A stretch of 64,000 bases of DNA from Minisyncoccia bacterium (GCA_041742075.1 JBGSJJ010000015.1:65132-129131); one strand, 5' to 3'; positions 1,313-64,000 are shown, counted from the stretch's first letter. Program-made: numbers and translations. Notes: a model not told the origin generated them from the sequence alone.

Positions 1313-4300
1313 CTAGCTGGTCGGTTCTACTGCTTCTGATTCTGGTGACGCTTCAGGCTCTGGTTCGACTGGTTCAGGCTTCTCTACTACTGGTTCCGGT
1401 TCTGGAGTGGGTGGGGGCGTTTCTTCTACGACTGGATCTTCTGGTATATCTTCCGTCCCGCTACCTCCGCTTCCTCTCGACCCTCCTTCCCCACCACCTT
1501 CGCTTACTTCTGGCTCTGGTGCTGGAGCTGGTGGTGGCGTGCTTGGGCCGGTACCCGAACCGTTGCCATTAAGGAGTCGGCGCAAATCGTCAGCGGTCAC
1601 ACACACGTCTTCGATACAGAGTTGTTCGGTTTCCACAATCTCCGTCTTGATACCCGTCACGGTAAGGACCCCATCAACAAAGTTTTGGGCGAGCGTCTTT
1701 AGGCGATCCCAGAGTGACTCACCTGCTCCACCAAAGACGATGTCGGTTGAGGTTGAAGTGAGTTCACGCATTATAGTCGCAGTCCGCGCGTCATCGAAGC
1801 GACCAAGCTTTACAAACATGAGCACAGTACCAACCTGTACTTGCTGTCCGTTAACCGTAACTGACTTGGCTCTCACATTTTGGAGCACTTCGATATCTTC
1901 TAGAGTTTCTTCAGCTTCTTCTTCAAGCTCTTCGGCGATTTCAGTGTCCGGCACAACTGGCTCAGTATTCTTCACGCAGTTCGTAGCGCCAGCAGAACCA
2001 ACTGCACCACCACCACCATAGCTACAGCCATCTTGAGCTTTCGGGTCAACTGGTGTCTCAGGAATATCTGGCAAACGAATATCGTCACCAAACTGATTCA
2101 CGAACCCTTCTGAGTAGGCATACTCACCCGTAAAGTCTTCAAGCGCTGAACCAACCACCACATCGCCTGGTTCAGCTTTTTTGCCCACGCCTGGAATACT
2201 GGAAAGCGCGATTTTGTCACCCACCTTGATAGCACCATTTTCGGTTGAAAGCTTAATTGGCACACGACCGGTAAGCGCAATCGGGTAGCCCGACTCGCGT
2301 GAGCGGAGTGAGGTGTCGTCAAACCCAAGGGTCATACCTGGCTTAGTTGAAACCACACCAATGATTTTTTCAGTTGTCTCTGTTGAAGCGCGACCGACAC
2401 TAATACCACCATCTGCATACACAATCTCGCCAGGTTCGAGGTTCTCACGACTGAAGTACATTTCAGCTAAGTCAGAGTTACCAACCGTAGCGGAAACCGA
2501 AGTGATTCGTCCCGTTGTCGACGCGTTACAACTTCCGTCATTATCGACACAGAGTCCTCCGCGACCAATCTGGAGACCTGCCATAGTGGTGCCGTTACCA
2601 ATGGTGGTTGTACCGTAACTGCTGACCGTGAAGACGCCTGAACCAACGTTCTGAAGATTAATGAAGTTACCTGCGTATGAGCCCGTATCGTTACCAAAGT
2701 TCATCAAGAGACCAGAGCCAGTGAAGGTTGAGTCTTCTTGGTAGAGTGCCATGAGGGCCGCACTCGTGATAGTGCGTGAGTAGCCTCGAATCGCGTTACC
2801 TTGAATGGTACCTTCGGTTTCTGCATACACACCAGCTGGCTCATAGAGGTCGCCAGCGTCTCCCCGAGTGGTAGCGCGGAGTCCAAAGGTCCGTCCGAAG
2901 CCGGAGAGCGCCGTGCTTTCTCCAAGGGTATTGGTACCTCTATCCACCTGCACTTCAAGACCACGAATGACGTTTCCTCTACTAGTACTGTCAGCCAAAC
3001 GCAGGAGATTACCCACAATAGTGGTCGTCGCACTACCGGTGTGCACGATTTCTGTCTGGTTACCAAACTGCACGCCACCACCACTGCTGTTTGCGAGACC
3101 GAGGTACTGCATAATGCCTGCTGTTGTGGTACCAGTGACGCCAGTCGCTTGAATTGAAAGCTTACTATTTGGCGTGGTAGTTCCGATACCCATGTTACCC
3201 GCTGCAGTCACGGTAAGAAGTCTGGCGTTTGTAGACGAAGCCAGCGCAAAGATGTCAGTTGTGCCAGCAGTACCAGTTACGGTAAGTTTCGCGGTTGGAG
3301 TTGTTGATCCAATACCAAGATTGCCGAGATAATCAAGTCGCATCCGTTCTGCTGGCACTGCATTATTTGCCGTAGAGAAAACTAATGCACCTTTGTATGC
3401 GCCATTTGTGATGTCAGTAATTATTCCAGATAAACCAGCCACGTTAGTCATGCCACCAGTCGTGCGGTTTGCACCGAAAAGAAGTTGAGTTCCGTTATTA
3501 TTTGTAGCTACTTCGTCATTTTGTAGTCGAGCCAAATCAAGTGTACCAACAGCACTGTTTATAATATCTAGCTTATACGCAGGGGCAGCTGTTGAATCTA
3601 GAAAACTACCAATTCCAAGATTTCCAGTATCACGCTCAACACGAAGTAATGGCAAAGAACTCGCCTGACTAAGTATTTCAAAGCCATTTCTAGTACCATC
3701 AAACCTACTGTTATAGCGAAGAATAATACCATCGCCTCCAGTCTCCTCTAAAACTACCTGTGCGCTTCCATTACTTGATGTATTTGAAAGTCTCAATTCA
3801 ACTGGATTAGACGTGCCATTTGCCGCAGAGAGATGTAATAACGCAGTTGAGTCCGGGTTAGCTGTACCAATACCAACTGCACCTGAACTTTTTACAGTAA
3901 GCAGTCGAGAGTTGGTTGACGAAGCTATTGCAAAGATATCGCCAGCCCCAGCAGCTCCAGTAATAGCTAATCGAGCCGTCGGCGTACTAGTACCAATACC
4001 TAGATTAGTCCCAGTGAATACAAAATCTGTACTGTCAGTAAGTGCTGTCGCACCACTGTTCGTATACATAATACGGTTAGCTGTGAAGGAAGAAGGTGTG
4101 TCGGTAAGCCCAAGGAACGTACCATTACCGAGACCAAGCGTACTCGTCGCCACCCAACGAGTACTGGTACCAGTAGTTTGAAGCACCATACCTAATGTAC
4201 CGGTGGCGTTGTTGTTGTCACGAAGTGCCCCTTGGAGGTAGGTGGTGCCAGAAAGCGTGAAGCCGAGGGTAGAAGAAGCGTTCACGAGGGTGGTGTTGGT

Positions 4301-7300
4301 GAGCATTGAGGAAGACGCGCGGACAAAGCCACCACTGGTTCCTTGTTCGTCACTAAGGAGGGCGGCTAGACCATTGGAATCGGTGAAGGCTGCTGAGGTG
4401 CCGAGGGTTGAGGTAGCCACCCACCTCGTACTCGTGCCGGTGGTCTGAAGCACCATACCTAATGTACCGGTGGCGTTCACTCCGTCACGGAAGCCGCCGG
4501 TGAGACGGAAGTCGCCGGCTACTGATAGTTTGCTGGCTGGGGAGCTGGTGCCGATGCCGATGTTGCCACTACTTAAGGTGGTGCCGGTACCGTCGACACC
4601 AGTACCAAAGATGAGGTTACCGATGTTGAGTACGTCGTCTTGAGTGGTGGAGAAGGCATCGATATCGTAACCAAGGAAGATACCTCGATCTACCCCTGTG
4701 GCGTTATCAGCAACACGATATCCAATCGCGATAGTACCAGTACCGTTGTTTACTGAAAGAGCATCCCTGCCAAGTGCAATATTTCTCAAACCAGTTGAGT
4801 TTGTAAACAAGGTGTAGCTACCGATACCGATGTTGTCTATACCAGTAGTGTTAGCAGCCAAAGATTGAATACCAAGCGCTGTATTATTTGAGCCGGTAGT
4901 GTTTTGTGTAAGTGTTAGTTCACCGAGCGCGATGTTATAAGAACCACTTGTGTTTTCATCAAGAGCAAATGGTCCTATGGCCACATTATTGAGGCCACTC
5001 ATGAGTGCGGTTGAAGAGCCAAATAACGCATTTTGTCCGATGGCAGTATTATTCGTACCGGTTCCTAAGAAACGAAGTGCCCCATCACCAATCGCGTAAT
5101 TGTAGGTACCGGTGGTAATAGAGGTAGATGACGCGCCGGCGAAGAAGAAGTTATTGCGTGTTGTCGAGCCGGTTAGCACTGGAGTAGTACCCATGAAGTA
5201 ACCAGCTGAGGCGGTGCTTGAGCCATTAATTGCAAGTGTGCCGAAAACAGTTGGCGCAGTAAGGATTGACGACGATGCGCGGACGAAGCCACCACTAGTT
5301 CCCTGTTCGTCACTAAGGAGGGCGGCGAGGCCGTTTGAATCACTGAAAGCGGCTGAAGCGCCGAGGGTTGAAGTAGCGACCCAGCGGGTTGAGGTGCCAG
5401 TCGTTTGGAGAATCATCCCCAGCGTACCCCTGCTACCAGAGTTATCACGAAGACCACCGGTTAGGGTGAGGTCGGTGAGGGTTGAAGTGCCGGTCACAGC
5501 AAGGGTGCCGGTTGCGGTTAAGTTGCCGCCGAAGTAGCCACTGCCAGCGACGGTGAGTTTGCTGCTTGGAGTGGTGGTACCAATACCAACCGCACCATCA
5601 TTAGCAATCACAAATGGGCTCGTGTCACCGAGTACATCATTTACCTGAAAGCTTATATCACTCGTTTCGTTAAGAACGAACAAAGCTGCGCCAGCAGTGA
5701 TTGAACTCGTACCCACAGCGACATCTCCATTAGCTTCAACCGCAAATGATGCTTGCCACGTCGCTCCAGAGTCGTTGCTTCTTCCGATACCAAATACAGA
5801 CTCACTACCTGAAGCATCACCAAACTGAAGAGCGTGACGATTTCCACCTTCTAACGTAGCCAGAGTGAAGCGTCGAGCAGAATTAGCATCGGTTTCCATA
5901 CCGAGCGCGTACGGGTCGTTATTTTCCGCTACGCTATTGTTAAATGTCATAAGCAAATTCTGATTTCCTACCGTCAGTAGGTACGGTGGTGTGCTGGTGC
6001 CAATCCCCACATTGCCATTACCATTAATTCGTATCCGTTCCGTGTTATTAGTGCCAAGAATAAGAGCGTTATTGTTTACGTTTCCGACTACCAGTGGAAA
6101 GTCTCGACCGGCATCTTGTGCAATAAGAGCGGCTGTGCCAGAGCTAAAACCAAAGAGTGTTCCGCCTGTCTGCCCAATATAAATATCGGCCGTGTTGCCA
6201 AAGTTTCGTATGTATTGAAAACCACTCGTGGTACCATCGCCCACCTGCAATTGGTAAGCAGGATTTGCAGTACCAATACCAACATTTCCTGTCGCACTAT
6301 CGACAAACAGCGTCGGTGTTGTCCCTGTCCCCACCCTGAAGTTCCCCCACACATCAAGCTTACTCGCTGGCGTCGTAGTACCAATACCTACATCACCACC
6401 ACTGGTGACAGTAAATAGACGTGCATTTGTGGACGAAGCTACCGCAAAGATGTCACTCGTGCCAGCAGTGCCTGTTATGGCGAGCTTGGCTGATGGGGTT
6501 GATGAGCCGATGCCGATGTTGCCAAATCGATTTATAGTCATTCGCTGTTCCTCAGCACCAGTCCAGAACTGAATCGATCCTTCTGGGTCACTTGGACCAC
6601 TTGGATTACCAGCCACAAAAAGAATATTTCCTCGCTGGTCCGATAATTCATTAAAATCATTACCCCGAGCGAGGAAATAGGCACCCTGGCTAGAATTATT
6701 TGAACCTCTACCAGCGGCAAAAAAGCCGATACTAGCATTGACTGTCCCAGAATTTTCTGATGAGAGGTAGAACAGATTGTCAGTCGCCTGAGAGCCTCCA
6801 TTTAATAAAATATTATTGGTAAATTCAGTTAAACCATTAAAAGTAGTTTTGCTCGTAGAAACATCTGTAAAGAGTGCTGGCACCGTACCAGTCCCCACGC
6901 GGAAGTTCCCCCACACATCGAGCTTTGCATTGCTGTGAGCAGTAGTTGAGCCGATAGCTAAGCTATCACTGAGTGACGTGAGGTATGAAGTAGCGCCACC
7001 ATCAGTGAAGAGTGACCCGCTTCCAAACCCAAGCGTTGAGGTAGCTACCCACCTCGTACTCGTGCCGGTAGTCTGGAGCACCATACCAAGGGTACCCGTC
7101 GCGTTGTTGTTGTCTCGGAGGGCCCCTTGGAGGTAGGTGGTGCCAGAGAGGGTGAAGCCAAGAGTAGAGGAGGCGTTGATGAGCGTAGTGTTGGTGAGCA
7201 TGGAAGAAGACGCGCGGACGAAGCCACCACTCGTGCCTTGTTCATCAGACAGAAGCGCAGCGAGTTCTGATGAGTTAATGAACTGAGCTGAAAGACCGAG

Positions 7301-9619
7301 GGATGAAGTCGCAATTTGATTCCAGGTATTGCCTGCTCCACCAATGAGGAGTTGGTTCACGCCAGTGGTTGAGGTACCGGTGCCTCCACGGGTTGGGGCT
7401 AAGATACCGATGGTATCTGAAAGCGCGATGCCGAGTGTACTGGTAGCAATCCACCGTGTAGAGGTACCGGTAGTTTGCAGCACCATACCTAAAGTACCAG
7501 TGGCGTTGTTGTTATCTCGGAGGGCACCGTTTAGGTACGTCACTCCAGCCAAGGTGAGGTTGGTTGATGAGGCGTTGAAGAGTGTTGGGGCGGTGAGGAA
7601 AGAGGAGGAAGCGCGGACGAAGCCACCTGAGGTGCCTTGTTCGTCGGTAAGAGCAAGAGCGAAGTTGTCTGATGATGGTGTTGCGAGGAAGGTCGCAACG
7701 TTGGTACCAAGACCTGAGACACCAGTACTAATCGGGAGACCAGTGGCGTTCGTGAGCACACCAGAGATTGGGGTGCCAAGAGCTGGAGCGATTAAGGTTG
7801 GACTGGTGAGGGTAGAGGAAGACGCACGAACGAAGCCACCTGAGGTACCGTTCTCATCAGAGAGGAGGGCGGCGAGTTGGTCGGAGTTGGTGAAGGCTAG
7901 TGAGGTTCCTAACGTTGAAGTAGCCACCCACTGAGTACTGGTGCCGGTGGTTTGGAGGATCATCCCGAGGGTACCACCTGAGTTAGAGGCGTCACGGAAG
8001 CGACCGGTAAGGGTGAGGTCAGAGAGAGTACTCGTGCCAGTAATTGATAGGGTGCCGGTTGCAATCACGTTACCAGCGACAGTAAGCAGAGCTGACGGTG
8101 AAGTGGTACCGATACCGACGTTGCCATTTGTCATCACGGTCATGCGCGACACACCGTTCGTGAACAGACGTAAGTCGTGGTTACTAATCGTGCCAATGAA
8201 ACCTTGCGAGGTGTCTGAACGTAATTCGGTAACTACATTGTTGGTAGTATTGATAGTCCTCAGTCCAGCTTCAGCAGAAGTTCCTTCTAGATGCAGAAGG
8301 CGTGCTGGTGAAGTCGTACCGATACCGAGTCTCGTCCCGGTAAATACAAACGTGTCACTATCAGTGAGTCCAGTTGCACCACTGTTTGTAAACGGAATCC
8401 GGTTGGCGTTGTACGCACTTGGTGTATCACTCAATCCCAAAAAGGTGTTGTTGCCAAAGCCAAGGGTAGAGGTACTCGTCCAGGTAGGCTGACCGCCCGA
8501 GACAGCAAGCACCTGACCAGCTGTACCAATACTAAGCGCAGCCGGTGTGTCAATTGCCGACGCGTAAAAGAGTGAACCACTCGGCATCGACGGCATGTCC
8601 GCTAAGTCAAACAAAGACGATCCCGAGAGGTCAGACAAGTAGGCATTGTCGAGAGCACAAATAGTACCGTTACAAGAAAAATCACCGAAGTCTAAGTTTG
8701 CCAGGTTGGTTGGTCCAATTGCATTTGCCGTTATTTCTTGTCCGGTGAGTGACAGGTAATCTTCTCCGGCTAAAGTGACAGCATCATGCCCAGCTGAAAA
8801 CCCAAGTGAGCTGGTCGCTACCCACTGGGTGCTTGTACCAGTTGTGAGAAGCACCATCCCAAGCGTACCGCGACTGCTGGCGTTGTCTCTAAGGCCACCC
8901 GTAAGCGTGAGGTCGGAGAGCGTGGTAGTACCCGTGACAGCCAAGGTACCCGTTGCGGATACGCTACCCCCGAAGTAGCTGTTTCCACTGACGGTGAGTC
9001 TCGCTGACGGAGTACTTGAGCCGATACCGACGTTGCCCGAGTTAGTTATCGTAAACAAATTGGTCACTCCTGAAAATAGTTCAAGTAAGTTACCGGCTCC
9101 ATTTTGAATCAAGGTGAGAAGTGCATTTGAACTTGTGGTAGCGAGTGTACCAGCCTGGTCACTGCGTAAGAAACTGGTCGTAGCTAAGCCTCCAAACTGC
9201 TCAGCGTTTTGCGCCTCAAACGCGGCTGGTACCGTTCCGAGAATCTTTCGTGGCGACATTTCGGCATCGGCCTCGATACTCACACCAAGGTAAAGAGTTT
9301 GCGTAAAGTCGACTCCTGCGCTCGCAAAAGAGGTGGTACTGCCGAGCATAACTGAGAAGAGTCCATTTGTAACCGTCACTTCGTTTGTACCATCGAGCGT
9401 CTCTGTCCAAATAGGTGAACCAGTTGAGGCAACGGTGTAGAGTGAGAATTCCATCTCATAGGTGCCGTTTGGAACCGCCACACCAGCGTTTGTGGTGAGC
9501 TTTCCTTGGTAGTTGATAGTCGGACTTTGCGCCAGTACTTGGGTCGATACAAACAGACCACAGGCAAAAACAATCAGGGTAGCGATCGTAAGTTGCAGTT
9601 GTAGCCGGAAGTGAATCAT
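1313..9619 (-). CDS. Giant (2768 aa) secreted/surface repeat protein with a signal peptide, an N-VGIGTTxP-x-KL-type beta-helical (tail-fibre-like) motif array, seven near-identical ~33-aa repeats, and a Pro/Glu-rich C-terminal tail.
   Basis: Single uninterrupted 8.3-kb ORF. N-terminus MIHFRLQLQLTIATLIVFACGLFVSTQVLAQ is signal-peptide like. The motif GxLRDNxxxxGTLGMVLQTTGTSTRWVATSTLG occurs 7 times and AALLSDEQGTSGGFVRASSS about 6 times. GNVGIGTTSPSxKLxV motifs recur. C-terminus is ...STPPPAPAPEPEVSEGGGEGG...EPEPVVEKPEPVEPEPE. Composition is dominated by T, S, G, A, N. Confidence 0.8.
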   Translation of the reverse strand: MIHFRLQLQLTIATLIVFACGLFVSTQVLAQSPTINYQGKLTTNAGVAVPNGTYEMEFSLYTVASTGSPIWTETLDGTNEVTVTNGLFSVMLGSTTSFASAGVDFTQTLYLGVSIEADAEMSPRKILGTVPAAFEAQNAEQFGGLATTSFLRSDQAGTLATTSSNALLTLIQNGAGNLLELFSGVTNLFTITNSGNVGIGSSTPSARLTVSGNSYFGGSVSATGTLAVTGTTTLSDLTLTGGLRDNASSRGTLGMVLLTTGTSTQWVATSSLGFSAGHDAVTLAGEDYLSLTGQEITANAIGPTNLANLDFGDFSCNGTICALDNAYLSDLSGSSLFDLADMPSMPSGSLFYASAIDTPAALSIGTAGQVLAVSGGQPTWTSTSTLGFGNNTFLGLSDTPSAYNANRIPFTNSGATGLTDSDTFVFTGTRLGIGTTSPARLLHLEGTSAEAGLRTINTTNNVVTELRSDTSQGFIGTISNHDLRLFTNGVSRMTVMTNGNVGIGTTSPSALLTVAGNVIATGTLSITGTSTLSDLTLTGRFRDASNSGGTLGMILQTTGTSTQWVATSTLGTSLAFTNSDQLAALLSDENGTSGGFVRASSSTLTSPTLIAPALGTPISGVLTNATGLPISTGVSGLGTNVATFLATPSSDNFALALTDEQGTSGGFVRASSSFLTAPTLFNASSTNLTLAGVTYLNGALRDNNNATGTLGMVLQTTGTSTRWIATSTLGIALSDTIGILAPTRGGTGTSTTGVNQLLIGGAGNTWNQIATSSLGLSAQFINSSELAALLSDEQGTSGGFVRASSSMLTNTTLINASSTLGFTLSGTTYLQGALRDNNNATGTLGMVLQTTGTSTRWVATSTLGFGSGSLFTDGGATSYLTSLSDSLAIGSTTAHSNAKLDVWGNFRVGTGTVPALFTDVSTSKTTFNGLTEFTNNILLNGGSQATDNLFYLSSENSGTVNASIGFFAAGRGSNNSSQGAYFLARGNDFNELSDQRGNILFVAGNPSGPSDPEGSIQFWTGAEEQRMTINRFGNIGIGSSTPSAKLAITGTAGTSDIFAVASSTNARLFTVTSGGDVGIGTTTPASKLDVWGNFRVGTGTTPTLFVDSATGNVGIGTANPAYQLQVGDGTTSGFQYIRNFGNTADIYIGQTGGTLFGFSSGTAALIAQDAGRDFPLVVGNVNNNALILGTNNTERIRINGNGNVGIGTSTPPYLLTVGNQNLLMTFNNSVAENNDPYALGMETDANSARRFTLATLEGGNRHALQFGDASGSESVFGIGRSNDSGATWQASFAVEANGDVAVGTSSITAGAALFVLNETSDISFQVNDVLGDTSPFVIANDGAVGIGTTTPSSKLTVAGSGYFGGNLTATGTLAVTGTSTLTDLTLTGGLRDNSGSRGTLGMILQTTGTSTRWVATSTLGASAAFSDSNGLAALLSDEQGTSGGFVRASSSILTAPTVFGTLAINGSSTASAGYFMGTTPVLTGSTTRNNFFFAGASSTSITTGTYNYAIGDGALRFLGTGTNNTAIGQNALFGSSTALMSGLNNVAIGPFALDENTSGSYNIALGELTLTQNTTGSNNTALGIQSLAANTTGIDNIGIGSYTLFTNSTGLRNIALGRDALSVNNGTGTIAIGYRVADNATGVDRGIFLGYDIDAFSTTQDDVLNIGNLIFGTGVDGTGTTLSSGNIGIGTSSPASKLSVAGDFRLTGGFRDGVNATGTLGMVLQTTGTSTRWVATSTLGTSAAFTDSNGLAALLSDEQGTSGGFVRASSSMLTNTTLVNASSTLGFTLSGTTYLQGALRDNNNATGTLGMVLQTTGTSTRWVATSTLGLGNGTFLGLTDTPSSFTANRIMYTNSGATALTDSTDFVFTGTNLGIGTSTPTARLAITGAAGAGDIFAIASSTNSRLLTVKSSGAVGIGTANPDSTALLHLSAANGTSNPVELRLSNTSSNGSAQVVLEETGGDGIILRYNSRFDGTRNGFEILSQASSLPLLRVERDTGNLGIGSFLDSTAAPAYKLDIINSAVGTLDLARLQNDEVATNNNGTQLLFGANRTTGGMTNVAGLSGIITDITNGAYKGALVFSTANNAVPAERMRLDYLGNLGIGSTTPTAKLTVTGTAGTTDIFALASSTNARLLTVTAAGNMGIGTTTPNSKLSIQATGVTGTTTAGIMQYLGLANSSGGGVQFGNQTEIVHTGSATTTIVGNLLRLADSTSRGNVIRGLEVQVDRGTNTLGESTALSGFGRTFGLRATTRGDAGDLYEPAGVYAETEGTIQGNAIRGYSRTITSAALMALYQEDSTFTGSGLLMNFGNDTGSYAGNFINLQNVGSGVFTVSSYGTTTIGNGTTMAGLQIGRGGLCVDNDGSCNASTTGRITSVSATVGNSDLAEMYFSRENLEPGEIVYADGGISVGRASTETTEKIIGVVSTKPGMTLGFDDTSLRSRESGYPIALTGRVPIKLSTENGAIKVGDKIALSSIPGVGKKAEPGDVVVGSALEDFTGEYAYSEGFVNQFGDDIRLPDIPETPVDPKAQDGCSYGGGGAVGSAGATNCVKNTEPVVPDTEIAEELEEEAEETLEDIEVLQNVRAKSVTVNGQQVQVGTVLMFVKLGRFDDARTATIMRELTSTSTDIVFGGAGESLWDRLKTLAQNFVDGVLTVTGIKTEIVETEQLCIEDVCVTADDLRRLLNGNGSGTGPSTPPPAPAPEPEVSEGGGEGGSRGSGGSGTEDIPEDPVVEETPPPTPEPEPVVEKPEPVEPEPEASPESEAVEPTS
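4150..8900 (-). repeat. Intragenic long direct DNA repeats within the giant gene (units of ~100-300 bp, several segments of 30 nt or more identical).
   Basis: For example, gaagcaccatacctaatgtaccggtggcgtt is identical at 4185-4215 and 4449-4479. Related copies lie near 5395, 7060, 7450, 7925 and 8810. gacgcgcggacgaagccaccac-type copies lie near 4310, 5270, 7200, 7610 and 7810. The repeats also produce the repeated antisense ORF translations in the track (ARTKPP(L/E)VPCSS...). Confidence 0.8.
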
Positions 9620-58828: not shown

Positions 58829-60277
58829 TCAAGCGTGATTTTTTACCTCTGTTGGTGATTTGGTGAGGAAAATAGCTCCTAAAACCAGCAAAACAAACAG
58901 TCCAAATACGATGAGTGGCGTTGTCTCGCGAGGGGCGGGTTCCTTAGTTACTGGCCTAGCAGAGCTCTCTTGAGGCGACTCAGCCTCGACTGTTGCTTCA
59001 ATTAGACTAGGCTGACTATCCGCACCATACACCGCGTCAGCATCTTTATGGGGTACGTACACTGGTTCAGTAGACGCTTCAGCTCTCGGCGTAAACGTAA
59101 AAAAGTCAGTTGCTTCTGCTTCTTGTTCTATACTAAGCAGTACTTCTTCGGGAACCACCTCAGTAGATACTTTGGCAGTATTATTTGTAGTAGCCACCAA
59201 CTGTCCTTCAGAGTCGTACAAAGCGACACTATCACCATAGGATGCCTGCAAACGATTTTTTGAGACCGTGATAGTACCCCTCGGCAGAAGCATGGTTCTG
59301 GGCGGGAAAATTACTGACTCAACTCCACGTAATCTAAAGCCTGAGAGTGGTACTTCGTACGGAGAATTATTATGCACCTGTACATCGCCAGCTGTATTTT
59401 GAGTCAAAGAAACCGTGACTGGTAGTACGGTAATTGTGACTCGCGCTATCTGTTCATGGCGCGCGTACGAAGCATAGACATTGACCGCGTATTCACCCGG
59501 ATAAAGAAACTGGTGCGTAACTTCTTTACCACTCTCACTATACCCATCACCAAAGTTCCAATTATATAAAAGCGAATGCAATATCGTATCGTTTGGCCCG
59601 GCCGGGGTTACTACAAACGGTATCTCTTGTCCCACATATGCAATCTCTGGGGCATCTATCACAAGTGCAAGTTCAGTATTTGCTCGTTCTAGTTTGAGCG
59701 TCTTCTTAGGTGGACGTAAAAGTACCCCTCCGCCAGATCGCACCAGAGGAGCTGTGGTGACTTCTTCTTCATCACTAGGTGTTGTCTCACTACCAACAGT
59801 TTTATTAGCACTGCCGGGTGTCGCTTCTGCCGTAATCCACTTCGTGCCACTATACTGAGCAGTTTCTTTGGTCGTATTATTGCCACCTATATTTTCCCAA
59901 TCGGTGCCACCAACCACTTGGTCAACAATGGTTTCATCGCCTGTACGCAAAGTAATCGTTGCGCCCGTATTTACAAGCGCACCCGTATAGGTGACAAACG
60001 GCGGGTTAGCAAGGTATACCCCGTCGCCGCGATTTCGCTCAAGTAGTACGTAGTCACCGGCCGGTATTTCACCAGCCAGCGCTATCGTAACACTCTCACC
60101 AACGGTAAGTTTCCAGCCAGCTAAAGAAACAGCGCTCGCATCGCTATTGTAAAGCTCAATCCACTCGTGATTCACGGACTCCACACTCCCCATCCACGCT
60201 ACCTCACTGACACTTACACCAGCATACGTAAGCGAGGGTAGTCCGAGAAACAGAGTGAGGAGGAGTAAGGCACGCAT
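58829..60277 (-). CDS. Surface protein: signal peptide, lamin-tail domain (LTD), PKD domain, C-terminal TM anchor
   Basis: MRALLLLTLFLGLPSLTYA is the signal peptide. VSEVAWMGSVESVNHEWIELYN...GWKL is LTD. NWNFGDGYSESGKEVTHQFLYPGEYAVNV is PKD. C-terminal PLIVFGLFVLLVLGAIFL. Confidence 0.7.
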   Translation of the reverse strand: MRALLLLTLFLGLPSLTYAGVSVSEVAWMGSVESVNHEWIELYNSDASAVSLAGWKLTVGESVTIALAGEIPAGDYVLLERNRGDGVYLANPPFVTYTGALVNTGATITLRTGDETIVDQVVGGTDWENIGGNNTTKETAQYSGTKWITAEATPGSANKTVGSETTPSDEEEVTTAPLVRSGGGVLLRPPKKTLKLERANTELALVIDAPEIAYVGQEIPFVVTPAGPNDTILHSLLYNWNFGDGYSESGKEVTHQFLYPGEYAVNVYASYARHEQIARVTITVLPVTVSLTQNTAGDVQVHNNSPYEVPLSGFRLRGVESVIFPPRTMLLPRGTITVSKNRLQASYGDSVALYDSEGQLVATTNNTAKVSTEVVPEEVLLSIEQEAEATDFFTFTPRAEASTEPVYVPHKDADAVYGADSQPSLIEATVEAESPQESSARPVTKEPAPRETTPLIVFGLFVLLVLGAIFLTKSPTEVKNHA

Positions 60278-60289
60278 ACTAGAGAATAC

Positions 60290-62332
60290 TTACAGCAGTG
60301 GTGGTCTATCGTTCCCGGTTACACGCATCATTCGTTCTAGTTTTTTTGGTGACAAAGGATCATCGGCTATTTCGGAAGTTCGCTCATCACTTTTTGGTTC
60401 TATGGGTGGAGGCGGTACCAGCCTGTCTTCTACGACACTTGATTCTTCCGTCGGTGCTACTGGGGTTGGTTTTGTGGCGTCGCCAATTGCTTTAGCTAGA
60501 GCGTCTTTAAGACCAGTATCTGGTTTTACTGAATTTTTTTCTGCCCCCTCTGTCTCAGATGCAGTACTTTTGTGTACATTCGCTTTCTCGTTGGTAGCGG
60601 AATTATTTTGTGAGGTAATCGATTTTAAAATAGCGCGTAAGTCATCGACGCTCGTTTGCTTAGGTGGTTGCGTTACGTCCCGCTGTCGTTCTCCCTGCGG
60701 TGGTCTTGGAGTAGTTACGGAAGGAGTCGGCCTTCGGTCTGTGTCTCGAGCACTTTCTACTCGAGCCGGTCGTGCTACTTCTGGCGATAAAACTGGCTTA
60801 GTATCTTGGCCCTGTGGTCGCACTACTAAAGGAGTGCGCGACGTGTCTCCTTTTTCTCTCCCCTCTCCCGCTTTATTTCGGTTATCAGTAGCTTCTCCTC
60901 TCACTGCTCGACGATCGTGATTTTGAGTAGATTCTTCATACTTCCGGGCCGGCGTTTCTGGTCTTTCTAACCTCACTTCTCTTGGGGGTTGAACACTACC
61001 ATCTCCTGTAGGTGGCTTGCGTTCAACCACCGGTTTTGGCGTCGGTTTATGAAATTCCAAAATAAGCTCTTCCACTTCTGCCCGTGGCCGAGCAAACTGT
61101 TTTCGACTCTCGGCCACAATCATATCCCGGCACGACACACTGGCGCGTGGGATTGGTGGAAGCGTAGTGGCGGAAAATGGTGTTGAACCGATACCGTCAA
61201 TCATAAGCGTCAGGTAGACCTGCGCGAACCCAAGGTTCACAATGTCTGGTGCCAAAAACTTTGGCGTAAATATAGTCTCGAGTACCTCCGCGTCAAACGG
61301 ACCAACCCGAAACGCAATAATCGTTCCGACGTTACCAAACACGGCATTGCGCACCTCTTCTTCCATTTGCTCGATATACTGGTGAGCAATCGTTAGATTG
61401 AGTTTGTACTTTCTGGCTTCTGACAAAATGTCTGCAAAGGTAGCGTTTGCAAATGACTGAAACTCGTCAACGTAAAAGTAAAAGTTTGGCGCTGAGTCCA
61501 TTTGAGTTGGCGTCAGGTCGGCCCGACTCATGGCCGCGAGATAAATACGGGTCGTGAGCATTGAACCCAAAAGATTGGCATTACTCTCTCCCACCAAACC
61601 TTTAGAAAGATTCATGATAAGAATCTTTTTGTTATCCATGATGTCACGAATGTCAAAACTAGAATGGGGTTGCCCAACAATATTTCGGATAAGTGGGTTC
61701 GAGGTAAACTGCCCAATCTTGTTTTTAATCGCATCACCCGCCTCCTGCATGTAGCGCTCGTTGTACTTTAAAAACTCATCAACCCAAAAAGACTTTACTG
61801 AAGGGTCTTTAATGTTGTCTATGACCGCCTTACGATAATCCTTATCGGAGAGCATGCGATTCACGCCAAGCAGGGTCGAATTTGGATACTCGAGAAGTGC
61901 CAAAAGCGTATTTGAAAGAATATACTCCATACGGGCTGACCAGGCGTCTATCCAGATTTTTTTGAACACAGACATGAGGCCCGACACCACCAAGTGGCGC
62001 CGGTCTGGACCGACGTCTTCCATGACATTAAAAGAAACCGGGCAATCCGTGTCAAACGGAGCAAAATAAAGCACATCCTTCTTGCGCTCTTCCGGAATGT
62101 AGTTAAGCAGGGTTTCCGCTGTCTGTCCGTGCGGGTCGATAAACGCGAGACCATTACCATTTCGGATATCCTGGACAGCCATATTCTCAAGGAGCGTGGA
62201 CTTACCCATACCAGTCTTCCCGATGACATACACATGCCGAGTCCTATCTTTCGCCTTAATACCAAAAGGCACATTGTTACCACGCGAATCGGTCTTGGCA
62301 AAAAAAGTAATCTGTTCAGGGTCGTATAGCAT
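60290..62332 (-). CDS. Soluble VirD4/TraD/TraG-like (type IV coupling protein-like, AAA_10/TrwB-type) P-loop ATPase with a ~260-aa disordered Pro/Thr/Arg/Glu-rich C-terminal tail
   Basis: HVYVIGKTGMGKSTLLENMAVQD is Walker A. FYFYVDEFQSFA is Walker B. No N-terminal TM segments. The tail is low-complexity. Confidence 0.6.
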   Translation of the reverse strand: MLYDPEQITFFAKTDSRGNNVPFGIKAKDRTRHVYVIGKTGMGKSTLLENMAVQDIRNGNGLAFIDPHGQTAETLLNYIPEERKKDVLYFAPFDTDCPVSFNVMEDVGPDRRHLVVSGLMSVFKKIWIDAWSARMEYILSNTLLALLEYPNSTLLGVNRMLSDKDYRKAVIDNIKDPSVKSFWVDEFLKYNERYMQEAGDAIKNKIGQFTSNPLIRNIVGQPHSSFDIRDIMDNKKILIMNLSKGLVGESNANLLGSMLTTRIYLAAMSRADLTPTQMDSAPNFYFYVDEFQSFANATFADILSEARKYKLNLTIAHQYIEQMEEEVRNAVFGNVGTIIAFRVGPFDAEVLETIFTPKFLAPDIVNLGFAQVYLTLMIDGIGSTPFSATTLPPIPRASVSCRDMIVAESRKQFARPRAEVEELILEFHKPTPKPVVERKPPTGDGSVQPPREVRLERPETPARKYEESTQNHDRRAVRGEATDNRNKAGEGREKGDTSRTPLVVRPQGQDTKPVLSPEVARPARVESARDTDRRPTPSVTTPRPPQGERQRDVTQPPKQTSVDDLRAILKSITSQNNSATNEKANVHKSTASETEGAEKNSVKPDTGLKDALAKAIGDATKPTPVAPTEESSVVEDRLVPPPPIEPKSDERTSEIADDPLSPKKLERMMRVTGNDRPPLL

Positions 62333-62745: not shown

Positions 62746-64000
62746 CTAATATGTCCCGTTACTTGGAAATGGCCTAGGCATCCTTGACCAGTGACTATCA
62801 GCACGAACTGTACCAGGGGCTGGAAGAACGAAAACACCACCACCGCTACAGGTATAGACATCACCAGTGGTTGGATGGACAGCCATCTCTCGATTTGCTG
62901 CCGTAACTGGTGAGTTACCAGTAATGTCTTCCCATGTTATAGCCGTGAAGGTGGCATTAAACGTTCCCCGCCAGACCATTGACTTACCAAATGCCCGCGC
63001 GTAGAAGTAAAATCGACGCGGCTCCAGCGTACACCATGCACCACTTGCTGCAAGAATCGGGAGCACATTGTTCCATCCACTACTCGCGTATGCGTTTGCA
63101 AGTCGTAACTCTAATTTTATAGACGCACTCGCTTCGCCTTGTAGCAACACTAAATCACCGCTATTACTAGTTGTGATAGCATAATTATCATTATGAGGAG
63201 AAACCCAGAAAAAAGGTTTGTCTTTTCCGCCTCGGTTTGGTGGATTGCCGGTGTACCACGTTGTCCAACTTACACCACCATCAGTTGAGCGATCAAACTT
63301 TTCATAGTTAGACGTAGCCCAAGTAACACTTCCCCGTTGACCAGACACACCACAGGCGGTACGACCACCACCCATTAACGACCAGCTGTCGCCAGCATTA
63401 TTCGATCGGAAGAGACCAGCGTACACTTGATTTGAGTTTGCTGGAGACACATACACAGTTGGAGTAGGATTTGCACTCGGCATACGAACAACCCAACTAG
63501 GTGCTAAATCTCCATTAGCAGCTCTATCACGTGTCAAAATAATTTGTCTAGAACCATAGTCACCAATTGCCAAAATGGCGCGACCGCGCTTTGCAACTGG
63601 AACTTCGGTTGCATTCTGAGGAATCAAACCAACCGCAACTCCGCTAAACGTCCCTCCGACAACTGAATTAAATTGATTTTTAATTGAATCACTGAGTTTC
63701 GCCTCAAGTAGTGTGTCTGGCAAATTATTTGTGTGTGCACACTGAACATCGTTTAGAGCCATAAGCATTCGGTTTGGACTGCTTCTATCAAAAGCTACGC
63801 CGAGTGAGAACATCCCTCCAAAGCCAGCTCCACTGACAAACCAGTCAGCACCGCGATTATTTGTAATCCACATTTGTCCATAACCAAAGGCTGAGGCTGT
63901 TTGAACGTTCGTTTGACTAGCTCGAAATTGTGACTGCCCTTTTCCTGTAAAGCTCACCCAGTGCTGATTGTAGTCAAGACCACTTGCTGGTGGATTAATA
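62746..64000 (-). CDS. BNR/Asp-box repeat protein (sialidase-like beta-propeller). 5' end lies beyond the window; the track's GTG at 63957 is not the true start.
   Basis: Asp-box-like SxDxGxSW motifs (SNNAGDSW, STDGGVSW). The reading frame stays open to position 64000 (…INPPASGLDYNQHWVSFTGKG…). Confidence 0.6.
   Translation of the reverse strand, partial: INPPASGLDYNQHWVSFTGKGQSQFRASQTNVQTASAFGYGQMWITNNRGADWFVSGAGFGGMFSLGVAFDRSSPNRMLMALNDVQCAHTNNLPDTLLEAKLSDSIKNQFNSVVGGTFSGVAVGLIPQNATEVPVAKRGRAILAIGDYGSRQIILTRDRAANGDLAPSWVVRMPSANPTPTVYVSPANSNQVYAGLFRSNNAGDSWSLMGGGRTACGVSGQRGSVTWATSNYEKFDRSTDGGVSWTTWYTGNPPNRGGKDKPFFWVSPHNDNYAITTSNSGDLVLLQGEASASIKLELRLANAYASSGWNNVLPILAASGAWCTLEPRRFYFYARAFGKSMVWRGTFNATFTAITWEDITGNSPVTAANREMAVHPTTGDVYTCSGGGVFVLPAPGTVRADSHWSRMPRPFPSNGTY

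Follow-up and report, generated by a model that had tools for sequence, protein, structure and literature searches.

A soluble ATPase of the coupling-protein fold and a lamin-tail-domain surface protein encoded side by side in Paceibacteria: a candidate module for DNA handling at the cell envelope

Introduction

What does an ATPase with the fold of a type IV coupling protein do as a soluble protein, and why does the gene behind it encode a surface protein built on lamin tail domains (LTDs)? These questions are raised by a 64,000-nucleotide (nt) stretch of DNA from a Minisyncoccia bacterium (GCA_041742075.1, JBGSJJ010000015.1:65132-129131), referred to here as the window, whose host is a Kaiserbacteria-like member of the Paceibacteria (Patescibacteria). 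Both genes lie on the minus strand, and all positions are those of the whole window. The ATPase gene (60290–62332), an open reading frame (ORF) of 680 residues classified with Pfam, encodes a soluble, coupling-protein-like protein of the TrwB/VirD4 fold. The partner gene (58829–60277; 482 residues) encodes a surface-anchored LTD-PKD-LTD protein, recognized by its Pfam LTD and PKD matches and by alignments A4 and A5. The spacer from the ATPase stop codon to the partner ATG occupies 60278–60289 (TAA-gtattctctagt-ATG). An initial annotation of this DNA had placed the partner directly downstream of the ATPase, as we find, across a gap of 13 nt that in fact measures 12.

Unable to make nucleotides, Patescibacteria are thought to subsist on nucleic acids that they scavenge. 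ComEA, the DNA receptor of competence, is annotated in only 31% of genomes of the candidate phyla radiation (CPR), and an alternative DNA-binding mechanism has been suggested (PMC6744442). VirD4-type homologues are abundant in the phylum, with 5,713 copies in 2,918 of 3,035 Patescibacteria genomes; detached VirD4-like genes have been described as 'exapted for other functions', and according to the same authors exaptation of t4cp 'cannot be ruled out' (Quinonero-Coronel et al., PMC12102498). The ATPase family has been counted in the literature and not dissected. Here we read the ATPase and its partner, tentatively and as somewhat short of probable, as a two-gene envelope DNA-handling module composed of a DNA receptor and a cytoplasmic DNA motor for uptake.

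A ComEA-type domain swap at the partner position

Genes were called and classified in 80 GTDB loci of the ATPase. In seven of these (L028, L037, L041, L051, L054, L061 and L063), the protein encoded directly downstream of the ATPase, at position +1, contains an HHH_3 domain of the ComEA type (Pfam, 1e-19 to 1e-23). A search with the HHH_3 hidden Markov model (HMM) gave the same seven matches, all at +1 and none at any other gene of the 80 loci; the window partner itself has no HHH_3 match by Pfam or by the domain HMM. In five of the seven proteins (L028, L041, L054, L061 and L063), HHH_3 stands right after the signal peptide and is followed by a PKD-LTD-linker-transmembrane (TM) body like that of the window partner (alignment A4, 23 sequences). 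HHH_3 thus replaces the N-terminal LTD on a shared body, so that the LTD and the ComEA DNA-binding domain behave as interchangeable modules at one orthologous position. Because HHH_3 holds this position in orthologues from sister lineages, the partner may be read as an extracellular DNA receptor akin to ComEA, with an LTD in the place of HHH_3, and the swap is the first comparative evidence here to suggest that role.

Further independent links to DNA and competence are found in pilB/ruvB gene clusters, in a pilin gene upstream of the ATPase and in the fusion of an S1 domain to a paralogue of the ATPase (described below with the long forms of the family). Distant LTD-PKD-LTD homologues that do not stand beside the ATPase occur in pilB-ruvB-X-yebC-ruvC clusters at eight loci, with pilB/ruvB on one side and yebC/ruvC on the other. 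Such clusters, with a pilB of the T2SSE type and an LTD-PKD-LTD gene, were seen in another CPR lineage at L129:1414-6989 and also at L131, L134, L159 and L161. A type IV pilin-like gene (GFTLIELLVVIAIIGIL) occupies position -1 relative to the ATPase in five loci (L021, L025, L038, L044 and L053), where the +1 gene is a GT4 glycosyltransferase.

Published work on LTDs offers a setting for this reading. LTDs accompany extracellular nucleases, and ExeM deprived of its LTD degrades DNA more slowly in vitro, the role of the domain being undefined (PMC6085458). Our literature search for the lamin tail domain in connection with ComEA or ComEC returned nothing relevant.

Architecture of the surface partner

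Pfam recognizes an LTD (3.8e-18, in two stretches) and a PKD domain (3.1e-9) in the partner. The protein opens with a signal-peptide-like N-terminus, MRALLLLTLFLGLPSLTYA (residues 1–19; 60221–60277), hydrophobic over residues 3–23, in which A19 is nearly invariant in A4 and cleavage is predicted. The N-terminal LTD follows (residues ~18–155; 59813–60226; Pfam LTD at residues 18–121), and it is this domain whose place is taken by HHH_3 in the seven related loci. The PKD domain (residues ~205–287; 59417–59665) is matched by Pfam PKD and PKD_4, contains a WNFGDG motif and has G243 and Y263 invariant in A4; a PDB profile search matches it to the PKD domain of collagenase ColH at 4e-9. The second Pfam LTD stretch corresponds to an LTD-like beta-sandwich (residues ~288–375; 59153–59416), with N303 invariant and P325 and L353 nearly invariant in A4. 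The PADLOC model 'SNc+LTD' covers residues 283–362 of the partner, which is the LTD part of that model alone. Pfam detected no nuclease domain, either EEP or OB/YhcR, in the partner.

A C-terminal TM anchor (residues ~449–472; 58862–58933; Kyte-Doolittle maximum of 2.71 at residues 453–471) precedes a cytoplasmic end of ~10 residues, and a hydrophobic C-terminal segment is found in all A4 members. With its signal-like N-terminus and C-terminal TM segment, the partner is predicted to be a membrane protein of type I topology that faces outward from the cytoplasmic membrane, in agreement with its initial description as a secreted, C-terminally anchored protein with LTD and PKD domains. In several LTD-type partners (L017, L019, L046, L061, L074 and L078), the TM segment is followed by an acidic ending (FEIE, FDIE or IELD; A4 columns ~700–746) that could serve as a cytoplasmic contact site. 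The window partner is without this motif.

The ATPase: a coupling-protein fold without a membrane anchor

The initial annotation had assigned the ATPase to the coupling-protein class on the strength of clear Walker motifs, and the domain and fold comparisons bear this out. Pfam matches TrwB_AAD_bind (1.9e-8), DUF87 (8.8e-7), TraG-D_C (1.4e-5; a family with the description 'TraM recognition site') and T4SS-DNA_transf (2.1e-5), each match exceeding its gathering cut-off. The ATPase domain comprises the nucleotide-binding domain and an inserted all-alpha domain (residues 1–428; 61049–62332). Its Walker A motif, GKTGMGKS (residues 38–45; 62198–62221), is invariant in alignment A1, and in the Walker B motif, FYFYVDEF (residues 284–291; 61460–61483), D289, E290 and F291 are invariant. 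An AlphaFold (AF2) model of residues 1–430, built from 150 diverse relatives, has a predicted local distance difference test (pLDDT) score of 96.7. In this model, helices spanning residues 112 to 233 lie between the strands at residues 87–90 and 237–241; the helical insertion (residues ~112–233; 61634–61999) is taken to be the all-alpha domain known from coupling proteins, with boundaries deduced from the model.

Foldseek comparison with the PDB returned TM-scores of 0.60–0.63 for TrwB, 0.63 for Cagbeta, 0.56 for DotL and 0.52 for HerA over nearly the full domain length, the alignment to TrwB covering about 420–450 columns. A family profile run against PDB sequences ranked TrwB (1.9e-8) ahead of DotL (2.4e-5) and HerA (4.8e-4). 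FtsK was absent from this profile search, Pfam FtsK_SpoIIIE does not match the ATPase, and the DUF87 match is weaker than that of TrwB_AAD_bind. We therefore reject an assignment to HerA or FtsK, since TrwB is the better match by Pfam, PDB profile and Foldseek; a better fit to those housekeeping clades, named at the outset as the result that would count against the proposal, is not what we see. Several close relatives bear the JGI label 'energy-coupling factor transporter ATP-binding protein EcfA2', which the domain and fold results do not support.

The ATPase was also annotated as lacking the N-terminal TM anchor of coupling proteins, and this too stands: no 19-residue Kyte-Doolittle window reaches 1.6, the maximum of 1.39 falls inside the domain, and Walker A starts at residue 38. 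A protein that has the coupling-protein fold and not the N-terminal anchor is not a canonical coupling protein.

A flexible tail with a conserved C-terminal helix

Behind the ATPase domain, residues 429–680 (60293–61048) form a low-complexity tail that is presumably disordered, to judge from its composition (P33 R26 T24 E23 in 250 residues) and from pLDDT values below 50 outside three short helices. A tail rich in Pro, Thr, Arg and Glu had been noted before; its length is nearer ~250 residues (about 429–680) than the 260 first given. The helices are predicted in a full-length model built on 20 near-identical sequences (overall pLDDT 44.6). Between relatives, the tail cannot be aligned apart from three motifs (alignment A1). 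The first, DDLRAILKSI (residues 563–572; 60617–60646), has L565 and L569 invariant and coincides with a predicted helix at residues 562–575. In the second, LKDALAKAI (residues 608–616; 60485–60511), L608 and A613 are nearly invariant, and a helix is predicted at residues 609–616.

The third motif, DDPLSPKKLERMMRVTGNDRPPLL, lies at the very C-terminus (residues 655–680; 60293–60370), is conserved in relatives and resembles a docking peptide. Of 120 close relatives, 114 have LExMMRV. Family-wide, the C-terminal pattern (K/F)E(V/I)PE(D/E)xL(R/K)xxL occurs in 57 of 77 GTDB loci, where shuffled tails would give 0.5; in the subclade of the window it reads 'LSPKKLERMMRVTGNDKPPL'. Tethered docking motifs are built in this way, with a conserved peptide at the end of a long flexible linker, as in the binding of TraM by TraD and in the C-terminal peptide of FtsZ. 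By analogy, the tail with its terminal helix may stand in for the missing membrane anchor and tether the motor to a membrane partner.

Conservation of the pairing

The +1 gene was counted in 78 species-level loci. In 31 of these it belongs to the signal peptide-LTD-PKD-LTD-TM family or to its HHH_3 variant; in 19 it is a GT4 glycosyltransferase, with assorted other genes in the remainder. The spacer between the ATPase and the LTD-type gene is short: its median is about 6 nt, and in several pairs the genes overlap. In the window, the two genes may be co-transcribed, to judge from the 12-nt gap. No terminator-like site was found between them on the minus strand in a scan that was at chance level overall: promoter and terminator counts over 55–64 kb equal those of shuffled sequence, so that the scan is uninformative on operon structure.

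A reciprocal search started from the eight closest partner sequences and covered 80 metagenome loci. Among partner homologues of at least 36% identity, the ATPase lies directly upstream on the same strand in 22 loci; eight further loci carry too little upstream DNA to judge, and eight exceptions resemble LTD-domain-only matches to unrelated architectures, mostly over about 140 aligned residues. Among distant full-length LTD homologues (27–33% identity), the ATPase is at -1 in 9.

The most divergent short-form ATPase examined, P0248, is 45% identical to that of the window, in a family usually above 65%. Its locus has the same MurC-RsmI-x-DUF4015-ATPase order, and a signal-peptide-LTD gene overlaps the stop codon of the ATPase. 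A search seeded by P0248 mostly returned the same general ATPase family. Since the pairing is kept at P0248 and in close relatives, it is old and conserved in close relatives, and it is not universal; the expectation that it would be conserved across related genomes holds to that extent.

The surrounding genes are syntenic as well. MurC-RsmI-x-DUF4015-ATPase is followed by a glycosyltransferase cluster; DUF4015 occupies -1 or -2 in 46 loci, and the genes downstream include glycosyltransferases, a GalE-like epimerase and YvcK. In most relatives, the position upstream of the ATPase is held by this glycosyl-hydrolase-like DUF4015 gene in place of the gene found in the window (62746–64000, minus strand, continuing in L001:1-2451), which encodes more than 816 residues with weak beta-propeller signals (BNR and Sortilin-Vps10).

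Distribution and distant relatives of the ATPase

The ATPase family is very large. More than 8,000 word-sharing matches were obtained, with 58–100% identity among the matches listed; 5,850 clusters at 50% identity score below 1e-30, and at least 576 species-level GTDB genomes encode it. Named sources include Kaiser-, Zambryski-, Yonath-, Taylor-, Nomura- and Adlerbacteria and other Paceibacteria/Parcubacteria, and the identical protein occurs in two Logan assemblies. Judged from local matches, the ATPase domain is roughly 72–88% identical to relatives across the Paceibacteria. Median pairwise identity over the 80 loci is 68% for the ATPase, 53% for RsmI, 49% for DUF4015, 45% for MurC and 30% for the partner, which makes the ATPase the best-conserved gene of its syntenic neighbourhood. 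It is a vertically conserved chromosomal core gene and not the remnant of a mobile element. A mobile-element origin is rejected in view of the low identity of plasmid matches (at most 38%) and phage matches (at most 28%) and of the conserved chromosomal synteny. The statement in the initial annotation that orphan VirD4-like ATPases are common in small-genome bacteria, with no assigned role, is in keeping with the published counts (PMC12102498); the word 'orphan' understates a highly conserved core gene.

In other Patescibacteria, Berkelbacteria included, a long form is found in which an N-terminal extension of 300–460 residues, DUF8128 (PF26449), is fused to the ATPase; in many relatives the extension begins with a hydrophobic segment. 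The ATPase domain of the window is 45–55% identical to these forms and about 30% identical to forms on Bacillus plasmids. A complete Berkelbacteria genome (CP011213) encodes tandem DUF8128 paralogues (L163:3851-9988), 654 nt apart with a gene of 171 residues between them. Another DUF8128-type paralogue lies at L164:7001-10159, and one such paralogue has a nucleic-acid-binding S1 domain at its C-terminus.

Beyond the phylum, identity to the nearest relatives is 30–38%. One of them, of 913 residues, is encoded on a 65-kb Bacillus subtilis plasmid and adjoins the conjugation genes TcpD/TcpE (L169:4948-7689, CP120602). Relatives of the ATPase domain at 28–30% identity also occur in jumbo Bacillus phages (Bacillus phage G gp156). 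Of 713 plasmid records with a match to the ATPase, 524 are typed as non-mobilizable.

Genomic setting of the window

The large ORFs of the window are of chromosomal content: SecA, GatB, MurB, a Wzy_C/TPR protein and glycan enzymes. The initial annotation had reported neither VirB4 nor a relaxase here, and we likewise found nothing resembling VirB4 or a relaxase among the window ORFs scanned, which for sizes below ~350 residues were part of the ORFs in the case of Pfam, or in the gene families that recur as neighbours in the 80 related loci. The sole other classical Walker A in the window belongs to an ORF of 322 residues, and there is no second P-loop protein of VirB4 size. Scans of the window for tRNAs and Rfam families gave no match, and hence no integration-site signature.

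Between ~28000 and 50000, the GC content falls to 0.34–0.42, compared with 0.46–0.51 elsewhere. This block encodes a Polysacc_synt flippase, a DegT aminotransferase, a TPP enzyme, a GDP-mannose-dehydratase-like protein and an NTP transferase, and is probably a horizontally acquired surface-polysaccharide island. A minus-strand ORF of 2768 residues (1313–9619), without a Pfam match at 1e-4, is of the giant uncharacterized type that is frequent in CPR genomes.

A proposed mechanism and its relation to known systems

Beyond the genes, domains, fold, conservation, adjacency and domain swap described above, the model that we propose supposes that the LTD binds DNA, that DNA is the substrate of the ATPase, that transport is inward and that the two proteins work together. 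The LTD of the surface partner would capture extracellular DNA, a task that in ComEA falls to the helix-hairpin-helix domain. The DNA would then cross the membrane via a channel encoded elsewhere, for which ComEC is the obvious candidate. On the cytoplasmic side the ATPase, presumably a hexamer, would dock via its tail helix and pull or thread the incoming strand, as ComFA does in Firmicutes. An ATPase of the coupling-protein fold would have lost, or never had, its membrane anchor, and the helix at the end of the flexible tail would tether the motor. A wider claim goes with this model: that a coupling-type motor has been exapted in Patescibacteria for DNA import via a tethered helix, and that the LTD is a hitherto unrecognized extracellular DNA-receptor module, taking the place of ComEA in those CPR genomes, roughly two thirds, where none is annotated. 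We consider this wider claim rather doubtful.

The ATPase shares a P-loop domain with an inserted all-alpha domain with TrwB of R388, VirD4, TraD, DotL and Cagbeta, at an identity to TrwB of about 15%, and, like TraD of the F plasmid, it has a C-terminal extension that ends in a short conserved peptide. Unlike type IV coupling proteins, it is a core chromosomal gene product with a low-complexity tail of ~250 residues and no N-terminal TM domain, and it is unlinked to VirB4, other genes of a type IV secretion system (T4SS) or a relaxase in the window and the related loci examined. It also differs from the DUF8128 proteins and from the pLS20-type protein of Firmicute plasmids, since it starts about 37 residues before Walker A, without the extension of 300–460 residues. 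In its proposed role as a cytoplasmic ATPase that powers DNA import through a membrane channel, it recalls ComFA of Firmicutes and the crenarchaeal Ced system; ComFA, however, is a non-homologous helicase of the DEAD-box type, and for the present family the uptake role is a proposal. Ced imports DNA with an ATPase of the VirB4/HerA class. The NCBIfam model CedD gives a weak local match to the ATPase (3.5e-6), far below its cut-off.

The partner is like ComEA in being membrane-anchored and extracellular, and its PKD-LTD-TM body is common to the HHH_3 proteins at the same gene position. Unlike ComEA, it has an LTD instead of a helix-hairpin-helix domain, a C-terminal TM segment after a signal peptide, and an additional PKD domain and second LTD. 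Shewanella ExeM and Vibrio Xds likewise have a signal peptide, an N-terminal LTD and a C-terminal hydrophobic anchor; these nucleases act on extracellular DNA, and the LTD aids their activity in vitro (PMC6085458), whereas the partner has no detectable nuclease domain.

Weighing the alternatives

The ATPase could instead be the genuine coupling protein of a chromosomal T4SS, encoded elsewhere near the replication origin, that feeds DNA or proteins to VirB4/VirB6, with the LTD protein as an unrelated neighbour. Its best sequence and fold matches (TrwB, DotL and Cagbeta, with TraG-D_C in Pfam) fit such a role, as do the Firmicute plasmid relatives at 30% identity beside TcpD/TcpE; the tethered C-terminal peptide recalls the binding of TraM by TraD; and a Patescibacteria-clade VirB4 is present in 2,407 assemblies (79%), with t4cp often encoded away from virB4 (PMC12102498). 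The same survey speaks against it, because only 148 of the 5,713 t4cp homologues lie near virB4, homologues occur in about 500 more genomes than VirB4 does, and relaxases are nearly absent (109 in 3,035 genomes). In S. epibionticum, moreover, the t4cp homologue belongs with comEC, comF and dprA to the non-essential genes, and the T4SS genes are essential (PMC12102498, PMC10633639); if this t4cp is orthologous to the short-form ATPase, the pattern speaks more for a role in competence than for one in a T4SS. The missing TM anchor counts against a detached coupling protein too, and such a protein would leave the conserved ComEA/LTD gene at +1 and its tight spacing unexplained. We regard it as quite unlikely. 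It is unlikely, to a slightly lesser degree, that adjacency reflects inherited synteny only, the ATPase being a core translocase of nucleic acids or proteins (for example in chromosome handling or repair) and the LTD-PKD protein a surface adhesin or glycan binder of the adjacent envelope locus. The very strong, near-universal conservation of the ATPase would suit this view, and so would the envelope-gene flanks (DUF4015 in 46 loci, MurC, RsmI, and GT4, epimerase and YvcK downstream), the 19 loci with GT4 at +1 and the frequency of PKD domains and LTDs in adhesins and in secreted proteins associated with glycans (Mans et al. 2004, quoted in PMC6085458). However, the HHH_3 swap at the same position favours DNA over glycan binding, the pairing is kept with overlapping reading frames where the ATPase has diverged to 45% identity, independent LTD homologues sit in pilB/ruvB/ruvC clusters, and the ATPase is without FtsK-type features. 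An anti-phage defence component of the MADS Mad8 or HerA kind is very improbable. PADLOC mad8 does match the ATPase (6.3e-14, 50 bits, 262 of 314 profile positions) and HerA matches are weak, but neither of the two neighbours tested with PADLOC scored as another MADS or defence gene, and a housekeeping neighbourhood and near-universal presence in the phylum are the opposite of patchy defence islands. With no partner genes among these neighbours, we reject the defence assignment.

Several observations weigh against an uptake module as well. DNA binding has been demonstrated for no LTD, and the LTD of ExeM is dispensable in vivo (PMC6085458). In 47 of the 78 loci (60%), the +1 gene does not belong to the LTD/HHH_3 family; 18 of the 27 distant full-length LTD homologues do not adjoin the ATPase; and, within the loci examined, BLAST with the window partner finds LTD genes at +1 or +2 only. 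Because the whole region is syntenic with envelope genes, the adjacency may be inherited and is weak evidence by itself. There is no com gene in the window. The ATPase domain is more conserved than would be expected of a dispensable competence factor, and the t4cp of S. epibionticum is presumed to be an ortholog of the short-form ATPase. Finally, the ATPase is cytosolic and the receptor shows only about 10 residues to the cytoplasm, with no contact evident.

Significance

In the literature searched, three things are undescribed: a soluble architecture with a disordered tail and a conserved end helix, the exceptional conservation of the ATPase, and its pairing with an LTD-type protein that alternates with a ComEA-type one. 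The pairing links two gaps in the literature, the uptake of scavenged DNA and the detached VirD4-like genes, and provides a testable candidate for each: an LTD-type surface protein that alternates with a ComEA-type protein at one locus, and a coupling-protein motor that is soluble and carries its docking helix on a tether. If the uptake reading is correct, one of the best-conserved uncharacterized genes of the phylum would gain a function, a DNA-binding role would be defined for bacterial lamin tail domains, and a conjugation-type motor would be found to run a non-conjugative DNA pathway.

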